The notes under the pieces: generated by a model
Database searches by the model: none
Seen by the model: only the letters and a program-made list of their open reading frames with translations
What the model was told of the DNA's origin: nothing
Source of the DNA: Eledone cirrhosa
Taxonomy: Eukaryota
Length of the DNA stretch: 64,000 nucleotides
Direction of reading: 5' to 3'
NCBI GenBank assembly: GCA_964016885.1
Contig: OZ024745.1
Location: 38,440,001-38,504,000 of the forward strand
Translations under genes and position numbers: made by a program
Shown here: piece after piece, positions 33,928 to 63,039 of the stretch
How positions within the stretch are numbered: position 1 is the stretch's first letter
Layout of the letters: every line of letters begins with the position of its first letter

Positions 33928-36359
33928 CAAAGGTTCTCAATGGTGGGCATAAGCTCCCCCGGTGGGCGTTTCCGAACTCCAGGGGGCGTTTGGGAGCAAA
34001 GTCGCGTTAGGGTGGCGGTGGGGGCGTTGAATGCTCTTTATTTTGGTAAGTTTTATAAGACATATTTGTATGTCTTTGAGTCAGCCAGTGTGAATGCATT
34101 TGAATGAGCTTCCAGACAGCATAACTATAGCCTGACTACAGGCGTGTGCGGTAATTGAGACATTACCCGGTAATTGATATCCTAAAAATGGTAGAAGCCC
34201 ACAGTCAACTGGGTCAAGTACACTTTGAACGCAGCCAGTTAGAATCTTATCTTTCCTTCACCCATAACAATGTATGAAATTATTGACTCAGCCGTAACGA
34301 GATAACACTACGTAAATCTATTTTATTCCCTATTGTATAAATATTATTACAAATAAAAAAAGAAAAGAAAATCAGAAGCGGGTAGCACACATATCTAGGA
34401 CCACATACAACACATAATCAGATAATACACACATCTAGGACAACATACAACACATAAGCAGGTAATACACACATCTAGAGCCACATGCAACACTAAGGAG
34501 GTAACACACACATATAGGACCACATAAAACACACAAGCAGGTAATACATACATCTAGGACCACATACAATACATAAGCAAGTAATACAAAAATCTAAGAC
34601 CACATACAACACAATCAGGTAATACATACAGCTGGGACCACATGCAATACATAAGCAGGTAATACATACATCTAGGACTATATACAACACACAGGCAGGT
34701 AATATATACATCTAGGACCACATACAACGCACATTGTATCATGTGCTACGGACGACGCAATAGCAATGGTCGGCAAACATAAGGGTTTCGTCACTCTTCT
34801 GAAAAGAGAAAATCTATCTGTATTTGCTGTTCATTGTGTCATTCATCGACAACACTTGGCTGCGAAGAAACTCAGCAAGCCGCTGAGCAAGTAATTGCAG
34901 GTGGCCATTGATGTCATCAATATTATCAAACGGCATTCCCTGAATGAAGGAATTTTCCGGCAACTGTATCAAGATAATGACGAAGAATTCGTCAAGTTGC
35001 TCCTTCATACTGAAGTGAGGTGCCTTTCAAAGGGCAAGTAATTTACTCACTTCTTTTAACTCTTCGACTCTATCATTGAGTTTCTGCGAGGTCGCAACAC
35101 AGAACTGTACAAGAAAACCCTCGATGTGAGGCAAGATTGCGCCTACCTCACCAACATCATCGAAAGGAATCTTTGTTGACGGGAACTCTATAATGTTCCT
35201 AGTGTCGCCAATGTTCAACACATTGTAAGCGATGACCAACTCCAAATTTATACCACTCAACTCCGTGCGCTACAATACAACATGAGAGAACGTTGTGTCG
35301 ACCTTTTGCCGATCCGATGGACATCCCAATGTGGATAGCAGAACCCTTCATAGCTAACGTCGACGATTTGGACATTACATTTCAGAAAGAATTCATTGAA
35401 CTTCAAACAGATGACATGATCAAAATTAGATTTCCCAAAATAGGTGAACCTCTTTTGGGGATGCAAGATGAAATTCAGCGTTGATTTCCACACCTACATG
35501 CAGAGACTAAGATATTTGCTCTGCCTTTTCCAAGCTCATACTTAGTCGAAAGTAGGTTGGGTGCTGTTTCCAGACTGCACAGTAAGGCTCGCAACCGCTA
35601 CAATGTAATTACATGTGGAGATCTCTCGCTACTTCTTAGGAAAATTCAACCTCATGTCAAAGAGTTAGCTAGACACCATGAAGATAAAGGGTCCCATTGA
35701 AATGAATCAAAGTTAAAGTAAGTTGATTTATTCGAAGCCTTGTATATGCTATTGTTACAAAGCAAACTAACAATTTTTTTTATTTGTAGTTGCAGTCTGA
35801 CTAGACTGGAAGCCATCTACTACAATTCAATTACTCATTTGTTGTATATATTTTACCATTTATTAATAAATATACCCTCCCGCGTGGTCATTAAAACCGT
35901 CTTCCGTGGTCTCTAAGCTCAGAAAGCAGAGAGGACATCGAGTTAGATATCAACATATATTCTGTCCGTTTCATTAAAGGGAAAATTGGAAAGCTTTGAA
36001 ATGATATAATTGCCACTTTCTTCCAGATAAGAGCACTCTTTGGATAGACAGAATTGCTCTTGAATAAATGTTCAAAATAACTGGTATCGCCAGGTGGGAA
36101 TATAACAAATTCAACTGGTCCTTATTCATAAAAAGGAAAATTTATGTTCCTTTTTTTGAAATTTATATATTTCCTTTCAAGGAATGTATTTATACTCTCA
36201 GCTGCCTGCAATGGTATCTTAGGAATATTGTTAATCAATTTTTTAGTAATCTACTGATATCAAAATCAGTAGTATATTGAAAAATGGAAAAATAGGGCAA
36301 GGGCGTTTGTGATTTCGAGGGACAAATGGGTTTTGGCCTAAATGGGTTGAGAACCTGTG
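33928..36359 (+). mobile_element. hAT (Charlie/Buster-type) DNA transposon, defective
   Basis: 13-bp TIRs caaaggttctcaa / ttgagaacctgtg. 8-bp TSD gtatagaa (33920-33927, 36360-36367). Transposase remnant 34735-35700: CATDDAIAMVG, HCVIHRQHL, LPFPSSYLVES, KARNR. Confidence 0.93.
34378..34732. repeat. ~40-bp minisatellite, ~9 copies, inside the hAT
   Basis: Unit gcaggtaatacacacatctaggaccacatacaacacataa. Confidence 0.92.
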
Positions 36360-58463: not shown

Positions 58464-59900
58464 GATGTTTCTAGGTTGGTTAGACCGGCGGTGGATGTAG
58501 TGTAGGTTGTCGTTTGGTTTCCTGTATGGGTAGTGTAGATCATTTTCGAGGAAATTGACTCGGGTTAGGGACGACTGTAGGGTGATTTTAAATCCCCAGT
58601 CCCGGAAGGAGTTGATTACGTGTTTATCAACATCTACGACAGAATATATTTGGCCTTGGGACTTTGGCGTATATCTCAGTTTAAAGCTATCAGAATCAGG
58701 ATGAAAATGTGCTTTATTACAATCAGGCCTCCAGGCGAAGCGGCTTTTGGGAGGAAATATGCTTTTACCCAGCCTCACCAAGCGGAACCAGCAGGAGAAG
58801 CCGCCCTGACGCCATGTAACGTATTTCAACCCTTCCCACAATGCCGAGGTTGCAACACCAATCGGGAAAATCTTCTAAATACTCCTCGAAAAACACTTCC
58901 CACCACAACACCGCTACCACAACATAATCAGCAAAAATACTATCAGACTTTCCTACTGCACCACACCCAACTTCGCACAATACATCGCCTCCTCAAAAAA
59001 CAAGAAACCCAACTTTTTTGGAAGAAACACCCTAGACATTAGTGGAGAGCCGACCAGGAGGTGTAACTGCCCTCATAGATCTACGTGCCCCCTCAACAAC
59101 AGATGCCGGAACGTGACGTAATCAACGAATGCAACATGAGGACGGAAAACTCCAACAAAGCCTGTATAGGATTAACCGCTGGTGACTTTAAGACCCGGAT
59201 CTACCAGCACCGACATACGTTCAGAAACCCAGCCCGGTGACATGCCACTACACTTTAGGGCCACATCTGGGACCTCCAAGATAATAATATCACATACCAT
59301 CTTACTTGGAACTTACTTTCCAGGGATAACTACTACACGGGAGGACGCAGTCCGTGTAACCTATGCTCAGAGGAAACAATACAAATGCTGTTTACGAAGG
59401 ACCACTCCTAAACAAAAAAAGACAAACTTGTAACCCTATGTAAACACCGATTGCGTAGGAATTACCTTGCCCTCAAACACCTTCATGACAAGGTTGGGCA
59501 GACGATGGCTGTAACATCCTTCTTTTCCCCATTAGCAGAACAAGATAGGGGAAACCCCATCATACATATGTAGATGTAATTCTTTTCTGTTTTCCCTTTA
59601 CCTCTACTTCTCACCTCATTCTACTCCCTCACATCTTTCTTTTCCTTTTTCCACGTTCGTTTACCCTGAGGCAGCCCGTCGGGCTTACGTAGCGTCAGTA
59701 CCCCCACCCCCGTAAATTCTATATAGCATTAACCGAAAACGCAATACAAGCTAAAAATATAGCAGCTGTTTTAGACTCTAGTTTTTTTCATTATATTTTT
59801 ATTATTTAATATTTTTATATTATTTTTTATTTATTATTTTCTAATTTTTTTATTTCAATTTATTAACCTTTTAAATTTTTTAATTTTTGAACTTCCCATT
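58464..59900 (+). mobile_element. Penelope-like element (family of 30009-32068) with 5' inversion
   Basis: 58464-58627 (-) encodes FRDWGFKI..PYRKPND..PRNI. From ~58668 the (+) strand continues into the linker and GIY-YIG, homologous to 31710-30870. Confidence 0.88.
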
Positions 59901-59902
59901 CT

Positions 59903-61751
59903 CAGATTCCTCAAGACTGGCGTAGCAGCATCATCATTAACTGCTACAAGGGTAAAGGAGATGCCCTAGATAGGGTTAACTATAGAGGCATTAAATTAAT
60001 CGACCAGGTAATGAAGGTCACAGAAAAAGTAATAGCGCAACTAATCAGAGAGCGAATTGATCTAGATGAAATGCAGTTCGGGTTTGCGTCAGGTAAAAGT
60101 ACCACAGACCCTCTTTTAATTGTACGACAACTACGGGAGAAGTACCTAGCTAAAAGTAAACCCCTATACTTAGCTTTTGTTGACTTGGAGAAAGCCTTTG
60201 ACAGAATCCCCCGCTCCATTATCTGGTTGGCTCTTAGAAAACTAGGTGTTGATGAATGGCTTGTGAGAACTATACAGGCAATGTATAAAGAAAAAGTCAG
60301 CAAGGTTAGAATTAACAACGAATATAGTGAAGAGTTTAGCGTAAAGGTTGGTGTTCATCAGGGCTCCGTCCTTAGCCCCCTCCTATTTATTATTGCCCTT
60401 CAGCCTATAACAGAGGAGTTCAAGACCGGCTGCCCATGGGAACTCCTATACACAGAAGATCTAACGCTCATAGGTGAATCAATGGCCGAACTAGAGAAGA
60501 AATTCCAAATATGGAAGCATGGCCTAGAATCAAAAGGCCTTAAAATTAACCTGTCTAAGACTAAAGTTCTAGTTTGTAGGAAGGAAAATAGGGCACCAGT
60601 CCCATCTGGAAAATGGCCATGCTCAGTGTGTAGGAAAGGAGTAGGCAGAAAGTCCATGTTATGTCCCAAATGCAAAGTATGGGTGCATAAACGATGTTAT
60701 GGGATCACAGGTAAGCTAACTAAGAATATAGATTTTATATGTGGCCGGCGCTCTGGTACCATAAGTAGCAGCAAGTGCCCACAAATACTAGCTCATTCCA
60801 TGGCACAGATGGTTCTATAGAAATAGTGGACACCTTCCGTTACCTTGGTAACAAAATCAGCAGCGGTGGAGGGTGCTCCGAAAGTACAGTAGTTAGAGAC
60901 AGAACGGGGTGGAAAAAGTTCAGAGAGCTTATACCACTATTGGCCGCTAAAGGGTTCTAACTAAAAATGAAAGGCAGGCTGTATGATGCCTGCATACGAA
61001 CAGCAATGTTGCATGGCAGTGAGACCTGGACATTGTGTGCAGAGGATATACGCAGACTGGAGAGGAACGAAGCTTGCATGCTCCGCTGGATGTGTAATAG
61101 TAATATACGTGAACGGCAAACCATAAACGAACTAAGGGAGACATTAGGAATAAGAGGGATCATATGTTGTTTACTCGAGAGAAGACTACATTGGTAAGGT
61201 CACGTGATGCGCATGATAGACGAAAGCTGTACAAAAAAGTGCAGGGCGATAAAAATAGACGGTAGCCACCGAGTAGGCAGACACAGATAAACCTGGGACG
61301 ACTTGCTAAATTCCGACCTCACACACACCTCTCCAAGACAATGTCACTGGACCGAGATCTTTGGCGATACACAGTCATACAGAAGACCCGCTTTGCCTAA
61401 GTACAAAGCGAAACCTACAGTCAGTAGGCACCTCTAATAAAAATACACCCCGGACCCACTACCCCCACCCTGCCAATGTAATGGTACCACATCATCCAGT
61501 CCGAAACAGATGAGGGCGTGTAGGTGTCACGACAAAAAACACACAGTCCACGCTGTAATGTTGCCGTGTAGATAACACGGTAAAAACCTCCCAGTCCACA
61601 CTGTAAACGTGGTTGGTGTTAGGAAGGGCATCCAGCCGTAGAAAACCCGCCAGACACTCCTATACGAGCAAGACAACCAATCTTGCCTCAAGTGGGAAAA
61701 TTCCCGTCCAAAGCCATGCTAGCATGGAAGATGGACGTTAAACGATGATGA

Positions 61752-61755
<4 letters not shown>
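59903..61755 (+). mobile_element. RTE-clade LINE, 5'-truncated
   Basis: PQDWRSSIII..KGKGD..NYRGIKL, FVDLEKAFD, GVHQGSVLSP, LLYTEDL, FRYLG, MLHGSETW. 3' end atggacgttaaac(GAT)n. Confidence 0.92.
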
Positions 61756-61828
<73 letters not shown>

Positions 61829-61833
61829 CATAT

Positions 61834-62980
61834 CAATATATATATGGATGTATATATAATGTATTTTGCAATACACTTTATGCTTAATTAAAAGCATTTT
61901 CTCACTACTCTAAAACCATAGCATACGGTCTTCAAAATGCTTTTAATTAAGCATAAAGTGTATTGCAAAATACATTATATATACATCCATATATATATTG
62001 CTATTTCAGAGCTCCAATTCTAATTTTTAATTTCTGCCTGACCAACAACCCCTCTGTATAACCAGTTCCTGATTATTTACTAGAATTCTACAAGAATATA
62101 ACATCAGTGATCTCGGTAGACAGGAGGGAGTAGTTAACCTTGATAAGCATCAATAAATGCGAAACAAGGCCTTGTCGGCTTATCTCCCCTGTTTGCTGAG
62201 ATTAAAGAAAGTGGATTTGACACTACTCTAAAACAATAGCATACGGTCTTCAAAATGCTTTTAATTAGGCATAAAGTGTATTGCAAAATACATTATATAT
62301 ACATCCATATATATATATTGCTATTTCAGAGCTCCAATTCTAATTTGTAATTTCTGCCTGACCAACAACCGCTCTGTATAATCAGTTCCCGATTATTTAC
62401 TAGAATTCTATAAGAATATAACATCACCGATCTCGGTAGACAGGATGGAGTAGTTAGCCTTGATAAGCATCAATAAATGCGAAACAAGGCGGTGTCGGCT
62501 TATCTCCCCTGTTTGCTGAGATTAAAGTAAGTGAATTGGTCACTACTCTAAAACAATAGCATACGGTCTTCAAAATGCTTTTAATTAAGCATAAAGTGTA
62601 TTGCAAAATACATTGTATATACATCCATATATATATTGCTATTTCAGAGCTCCAATTCTAATTTTTAATTTCTGCCTGACCAACAACCGCTCTGTATAAC
62701 CAGTTCCTGATTATTTACTAGAATTCTATAAGAATATAACATCAGTGATCTCGGTAGACAGGAGGGAGTAGTTAGCCTTGATAAGCATCAATAGATGCGA
62801 AACAAGGCCGTGTCGGCTTATCTCCCCTGTTTGCTGAGATTAAAGTAAGTGAATTCGTCACTACTCTAAAACAATAGCATACGGTCTTCAAAATGCTTTT
62901 AATTAAGCATAAAGTGTATTGCAAAATACATTATATATACATCCATATATATATTGCTATTTCAGAGCTCCAATTCCCAA

Positions 62981-62986
<6 letters not shown>
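61834..62986 (+). mobile_element. Retrozyme-like tandem array: ~318-nt monomer x ~3.4 with inverted 5' piece
   Basis: Units start at 61903, 62221, 62541 and 62859. 61834-61900 is an inverted fragment. (TA)n on both sides. One HHR per unit. Confidence 0.92.
62774..62818 (+). ncRNA. Type I hammerhead, U3:A8 core variant (also 62136-62180 and 62456-62500)
   Basis: agcc TTGATAA gcatc aata gatgc GAAA caaggcc(t/g)tg TC ggct. Long extended stem I: tctcggtagacagg..ggag / ctcc.cctgtttgctgaga. Confidence 0.88.

Positions 62987-63039
<53 letters not shown>

Follow-up and report, generated by a model that had tools for sequence, protein, structure and literature searches.

A dispersed tandem retrozyme family with a U3:A8 hammerhead in Eledone cirrhosa, likely mobilized by Penelope-like retrotransposons

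For a tandem repeat found in a 64,000-nucleotide stretch of Eledone cirrhosa DNA (GenBank assembly GCA_964016885.1, contig OZ024745.1, positions 38,440,001 to 38,504,000; here called the window), the best explanation is a dispersed, non-coding animal non-LTR retrozyme with tandem units of 315 to 320 nt, a U3:A8 hammerhead in each unit, and likely mobilization by Penelope-like retrotransposons (PLEs). We regard this reading as probable. Published work already covers the class, the U3:A8 variant of the core, and the link to PLEs. The contribution of the window family is an inexpensive genomic readout of the PLE mechanism: a 318-nt passenger, two mapped start sites, and near-strict pairing of ends. 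Sister families with a C3:G8/U3:A8 swap and a rewritten palindrome, together with a young RT- and GIY-YIG-bearing element, make the proposals of a circular template and of dimer cleavage testable in vitro.

RESULTS

The tandem array and its hammerheads

Tandem repeat detection returned an array with a period of 318, 3.4 copies, and 95% matches, which agrees with the roughly 3.4 head-to-tail units of the initial annotation. The units are 318 to 320 bp long with a GC content of 35%. No frame of at least 90 aa was found in the array, which has no ORF and thus lacks the RT and GIY-YIG ORF of an autonomous PLE. The retrozyme identity first proposed is borne out by tandem units, a GC content below 50%, the lack of an ORF and of an LTR/PBS/PPT layout, a hammerhead in each unit, and a dispersed multicopy distribution. 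On every feature testable from sequence, the window family belongs with the animal non-LTR retrozymes, as a new member.

The type I hammerhead layout was present in 3/3 full units, each with U3:A8. In order, each consists of the core UUGAUAA, stem II (4 bp, closed by a 6-nt loop), GAAA, stem III, and GUC, and it is set within a long extended stem I. The window cores have the positions 3-9, G12-A14, the 15.1-16.1 pair, and H17 that a type I hammerhead requires. Such a layout had been annotated for every unit with stem I reading AGCC; the three cores stand, but stem I of unit 1 reads AACC. The perfect stem III palindrome claimed for unit 1 was found there over 12 nt, and units 2 and 3 carry substitutions, so it is confined to unit 1. 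When the 116-nt domain of each core was folded, a long stem was obtained (z = -5.4, -4.5, and -6.6), and 0/200 shuffles were equally stable; the 61-nt core alone folded no better than chance (z = -0.9). Of the three cores, the Rfam model RF02275, whose consensus carries C3:G8, scored only two, with 19.5 and 19.3 bits. These values are far under the gathering score of 52, and a standard scan therefore overlooks the window hammerheads. Rfam matches to mir-1277 were rejected as (TA)n artefacts.

The initial annotation had overlooked the insertion anatomy, namely, a 65-bp arm in inverted orientation, 3' ends at two fixed positions, and flanks of (TA)n (Table 1; unit positions are numbered from the base following C17). 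The inverted arm, 98% identical to the corresponding unit positions, has the short end and the main arm has the long end, which matches the family pattern described below, and (TA)n was met at both ends of the insertion. The three units differ from one another about as much as they differ from other loci, and the window locus is a partly decayed family copy. Elsewhere in the window, a 40-bp tandem repeat occupies positions 34376-34728 (8.9 copies, 81% matches).

Table 1. Features of the insertion in the window, with positions counted from the first letter of the window
Feature	Positions	Strand	Remarks
Left (TA)n target microsatellite	61754..61835		Immediately beyond an older LINE copy's 3' end
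Inverted 5'-truncated arm	61836..61900	-	Unit positions 76-140; stops at the family's short 3' end
Main arm (tandem array)	61902..62987	+	3.4 tandem units; 5' truncation at unit position 45; family's long 3' end
Extended stem I around hammerhead 1	62108..62207	+	From folding; recurs in each unit
Hammerhead 1	62136..62180	+	U3 62140, C17 62176; perfect 12-nt stem III palindrome at 62164-62175; one stem I mismatch
Predicted monomer 1	62177..62496	+	320 nt between two putative cleavage sites
Hammerhead 2	62456..62500	+	U3 62460, C17 62496; stem III with two substitutions
Predicted monomer 2	62497..62814	+	318 nt, from putative cleavage
Hammerhead 3	62774..62818	+	U3 62778, C17 62814; stem III with one substitution
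Three small hairpins	62890..62954	+	Just upstream of the short end; one set per unit; compensatory changes
PLE-type tail	62955..62987	+	Between the short and long 3' ends; 7-nt duplication in the window copy
Right (TA)n target microsatellite	62988..63037		Right flank of the insertion

U3:A8 as the norm of the family

The 3.0-Gb genome was searched with the exact 29-mer carrying U3:A8, which gave 187 matches, vs 0 for the C3:G8 (CUGAUGA) version. A genome-wide CUGAUGA consensus with this locus as an outlier, the alternative raised alongside the initial proposal of a compensatory U3:A8, was thus checked and is not what the genome holds. Positions 3 and 8 also behave as that proposal expects. Over 220 motifs from 133 loci, they are U:A in 176, C:G in 38, and mismatched in 6, i.e., paired in 214/220. 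A looser hammerhead pattern gave 1315 genome matches, and U3:A8 was present in 99/100 among the matches listed. U3:A8 is the norm of the window family, not decay. Counts based on CUGANGA underestimate retrozyme content. The looser matches are unequally divided between the strands (816 forward vs 499 reverse), which suggests a long array at an unlocated site.

Sister families were also found. Family B has 315-nt units, is about three quarters identical to the window family (family A), and carries CUGAUGA in 22/24 parsed motifs. An intermediate set with different stems occurs among the tail-bearing loci. The tail motif matched 6488 times in the genome, a count explained by sister families carrying the tail too. 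A more distant sister family has 310-nt units, C3:G8, and a 6-nt palindromic stem III. At two loci of this distant family (L243 and L244, C1 near 24.876 Mb and 184.38 Mb), 10/10 full units are identical, and very recent activity is therefore probable. Two family-B-like copies (L140 and L225), with U3:A8 and U3:G8 cores, may represent an intermediate or a second switch.

When 62 distinct full units were arranged in a midpoint-rooted tree, all 3 C:G units fell on one side, and the 3:8 covariation therefore counts as about one event. From this tree, U3:A8 looks like a single switch that was then retained by a ladder of younger subfamilies.

Insertion anatomy across the family

The 3' ends of the arms fall at two fixed unit positions about 26 to 31 nt apart, a short end at ~140 and a long end at 166-173, and (AT)n follows most intact ends. 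A genome-order sample was taken from the loci behind the first 100 listed matches of the looser pattern; there were 57, of which one was dropped as a neighbour's duplicate. In this sample, 35/56 loci were two-armed, with the arms head to head. The 35 consisted of 27 short+long pairs, 0 short+short, 0 long+long, and 8 loci with one broken end, so every classifiable locus was short+long (27/27). The arms overlap at the junction by at least 1 nt in 24/35. The 29 best-similarity loci contained 16 short+long pairs and 1 short+short, and 29 family B loci contained 14 and 3, respectively. With all three samples pooled, 57/61 classifiable pairs were short+long; outside the genome-order sample, 4/34 were short+short.

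More than one unit was present in 53/81 arms, in a sample chosen to hold a core and hence biased to long arms. On both strands, multi-unit arms are truncated at random on the 5' side, and their 3' ends are fixed. An apparent clustering of 5' ends over unit positions 165-171 (12/191) was not significant after scan correction (p about 0.2), and a gap at positions 148-160 was borderline (p about 0.05). A pattern built from loose contig ends gave 1 match. An inverted truncated arm, a one-sided tail, and (TA)n flanks are the PLE signature. In 13 sequences from families A and B, compensatory changes have preserved the three hairpins upstream of the short end, which are a candidate recognition module for a PLE protein.

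The template of the copies

The putative cleavage site was crossed by arms 214 times, and 3 arms stop there vs 3.2 expected. Since there is no excess of stops at the site, the template was either ligated or uncleaved. Distances were 0.024 and 0.035 within loci, vs 0.070 between loci. In the 11 loci with at least three full units, private alleles were fixed in all units in 3/11, and 3/99 minority alleles recurred at another locus. Older arrays are heterogeneous, with up to 17.7 differences between units. At one locus (L145), a private 5-nt insertion is present on both arms. These patterns favor the origin of the units of one insertion from a single haplotype or monomer, which fits a circular template. 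The window family was likely copied from an RNA circle by PLEs. The rolling-circle reverse transcription proposed in the initial annotation is in line with these family data, but one long array has grown partly by local duplication: the longest array (L241-L242, C1:293635236-293643479) has 26 units, one long end, and a 6-unit higher-order duplication.

The same PLE-mobilized, non-coding family might have been copied without any circle, from linear, uncleaved tandem transcripts whose hammerhead is slow, protein-assisted, or only occasionally active. Passage of the arms through the cleavage site without a pile-up agrees with such a template, and arrays of up to 26 units are possible sources of it. 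The uncleaved transcript of a young uniform array would yield identical read-through and a large part of the uniformity, and the identical units of the distant 310-nt family cannot tell apart the circular and linear models. The hammerhead is dispensable for PLE insertion in vitro, where its mutants were without effect, and no RNA-seq ends were reported at the cut site (PMC11167929). In our predictions, the blocked fold described below is the minimum. One hammerhead-less tandem with a proper end was also found (L215:1880-2510, C1:56078391-56078907); it has 3.7 copies of 163 bp, a normal long end, a junction unique to the locus, and one site that alternates between units, and it may have arisen from a circle with a deletion or by local duplication. 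However, the heterogeneity of older arrays is difficult to reconcile with the rarity of recurring minority alleles and with the loci fixed for private alleles if the template was linear. In addition, 0/27 subfamily-level polymorphic sites lie inside the 13 core positions, and covariation was found in stems I, II, and III, which argues for a ribozyme under selection across transposition cycles. Mutation of the core was not clearly lower than that of the median position (0.014 vs 0.016), as expected under neutral decay after insertion. On balance, we consider the linear template unlikely and retain the RNA circle as the likely template.

Dimer folding and a possible switch

Of the four commonest distinct types of stem III, two are 12-nt palindromes, and the other two are palindromes with an interruption at the center. 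Among 124 12-mers, pair 5-8, formed in the dimer only, is G-C in 87 cases and A-U in 23. Retention of the palindrome through such compensatory changes points to dimer cleavage; the initial annotation had not considered this likely need for dimers. In 11/11 motifs, the active fold of the monomer was predicted to lie 2.6-10.5 kcal/mol above the minimum, by secondary structure only, with tertiary energy excluded. In 9/11 motifs from several subfamilies, the 5' core strand was predicted to pair with the 5' side of stem III, forming a blocking helix with a probability of 0.64-0.99; position 3 lies in this helix in a U-A, U-G, or C-G pair. When subfamily halves were swapped, the matched halves gave the best or a tied blocking helix in 4/6 cases; U is permissive and the events are few, and covariation of the predicted helix is only a lead.

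A rough sum of dimer energies was neutral or favorable in 4/6 intact family copies. For the window unit pairs, dimer folds were predicted to be 6.5-8.2 kcal/mol less stable than the blocked monomers, compared with -0.7 for an intact family copy. Partly decayed and with unfavorable dimer folds, the window copy is thus a poor construct for a cleavage assay.

As a tentative model, one RNA circle could template both strands of the PLE-cut (TA)n site, starting at two fixed points, with the hammerhead acting as a switch that the blocking helix holds off in the monomer, to the protection of the circle, and that is turned on when stem III swaps partners in the tandem. If true, this would explain both the two-strand mechanism of PLEs and how animal retrozyme circles escape self-cutting. 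How these circles avoid self-cleavage is a question left open in PMC7229834; dimer cleavage of hammerheads with a palindromic stem III is established (PMC4209133; PMC6765202).

A candidate PLE partner

The genome contains 10,597 GIY-YIG candidate loci, of which 150 were scored and 50 loci were read, yielding six families with at least two members. When the retrozyme unit profile was compared with the 3' regions of these 50 loci, no PLE aligned (best E 0.028, an inserted sister-family copy aside). One locus (L091, C1:145868500-145877500, minus strand) is a pLTR-ORF-pLTR element with pLTRs 4979 bp apart and a 938-aa frame with RT and GIY-YIG matches. Its linker, identified by eye, reads CX4CxxC, a mark of Neptune/Nematis (PMC8557442). 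Identity was 98-100% in 77/77 copies scored; the L091 family is a full-length PLE of the Neptune type and very young. Its hammerhead is U3:A8, its two-armed copies pair a long with a short end in 3/3, and its terminal TTCTAAT before (AT)n is a heptamer also present in family A. Nothing longer than this heptamer is common to the two, and the tail is about 63 nt vs 26-31 nt. L091 is a candidate partner only. An older PLE family (the L061-L088 group, e.g., L062:1500-2430) carries a motif resembling a U3:A8 hammerhead some 190-210 nt ahead of its (AT)n end. A supposed pLTR pair at another locus (L211), two tail matches 5 kb apart, was rejected as separate non-coding insertions.

The repeat could also be the detached pLTR of a specific autonomous PLE, with tandems arising mainly by local DNA duplication after the insertion of a single unit. 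Such an origin, with local amplification, has been proposed (10.64898/2026.07.22.740005), and the higher-order duplication of the 26-unit array is in keeping with it. However, a coding partner with shared sequence was not found in the 50 GIY-YIG loci, and in the tail-bearing loci examined, the tail is followed by (AT)n or by the next unit. The frequency of arms longer than one unit (in a sample that favors them), the random 5' truncations with fixed 3' ends, and the divergence among the window units, about as great as that from other loci, also speak against duplication of a single inserted unit. We consider this origin very improbable and keep to copying by PLEs, likely from an RNA circle, as the preferred reading.

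At 59891-61753 lies a LINE copy that encodes an RT followed by a PHD-like cysteine cluster (Pfam) and that ends in short GAT repeats. Flanking sequence differs from locus to locus, and the LINE beside the window array is therefore incidental. Twin priming inverts a 5' part only and leaves one 3' end. Mobilization by a LINE, such as this adjoining RTE-like element that ends just left of the array, with twin-priming inversions is hardly credible, since both arms finish outward at the element's own 3' ends, which fall at two different fixed sites, the tail is one-sided, and (AT)n flanks the insertions; the uniform short+long pairing disfavors it as well.

DISCUSSION

Taken together, the data can be arranged into a cycle whose transcription, cleavage, circles, dimer folding, and partner protein we infer. 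A tandem genomic copy would be transcribed, and adjacent hammerheads would pair via the palindromic stem III and cut after GUC. The monomers would then be ligated into circles. At the target, a PLE endonuclease would nick both strands of a (TA)n site, and reverse transcription would begin at two fixed internal sites, the short- and long-end positions (unit positions ~140 and 166-171), one per strand. Synthesis of cDNA would proceed round the circle, through the ligated cleavage site, and the two truncated cDNAs would be joined head to head at short overlaps.

As reported previously, animal non-LTR retrozymes have units of 350-390 nt in mussel, 330/350 nt in axolotl, and 220-245 nt in coral (Cervera and de la Pena 2020, PMC7229834). 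Like the elements described there, the window family consists of dispersed non-coding tandems in the range of 150-450 bp, with less than 50% GC and one type I hammerhead per unit, in a genome that contains PLEs. Unlike them, it has U3:A8, a longer palindromic stem III, and circles and cleavage that are predicted; its inverted arms, two fixed ends, and tail are, as far as the text covered goes, not described there. No paper on the window family or on retrozymes with short+long pairing was found in the literature covered, which did not extend to subscription journals or to the supplementary files of PMC7229834 and of a 2026 preprint, where the family might be listed.

In that preprint, retrozymes are presented as non-autonomous PLE derivatives mobilized by the PLE machinery (Li, Clavereau, Pollet 2026, bioRxiv 10.64898/2026.07.22.740005), and mobilization by PLE machinery is likewise our inference. 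The evidence is different. The preprint relies on pLTR homology and on co-occurrence, chiefly in vertebrates. For the window family, the link comes from insertion anatomy, and a homologous pLTR was not found in 50 loci. Of the Xenopus retrozyme dimers described in the preprint, 1/9 cleaved.

A close match in insertion anatomy is with EN+ PLEs of the Neptune/Nematis type. Hallmarks of PLEs are truncated copies in inverted orientation, a one-end tail, and a (TA)n bias (Craig et al. 2021, PMC8557442). Frangieh et al. (2024, PMC11167929) describe the PLE tail as the stretch between two internal reverse transcription start sites and report that cutting and extension involve both strands of the target. 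The window family shares with EN+ PLEs the partial tandems, the inverted 5'-truncated copy, the one-end tail, the (TA)n bias, the two internal starts, and a type I hammerhead near the 3' end. It differs in having no ORF and in a tail of 26-31 nt vs 30-40 nt, and short+long pairing is quantified in the window family.

The U3:A8 pair is not new but a published natural variant. It was described as a natural covariation, active in vitro according to earlier work cited there (Perreault et al. 2011, PMC3088659), and was reported at about 1,300 Schistosoma PLE hammerheads (Cervera and de la Pena 2014, PMC4209133). In these publications, U3:A8 hammerheads are mostly single minimal motifs, whereas the window family has full-size helices, a tandem retrozyme organization, and sister families with C3:G8.
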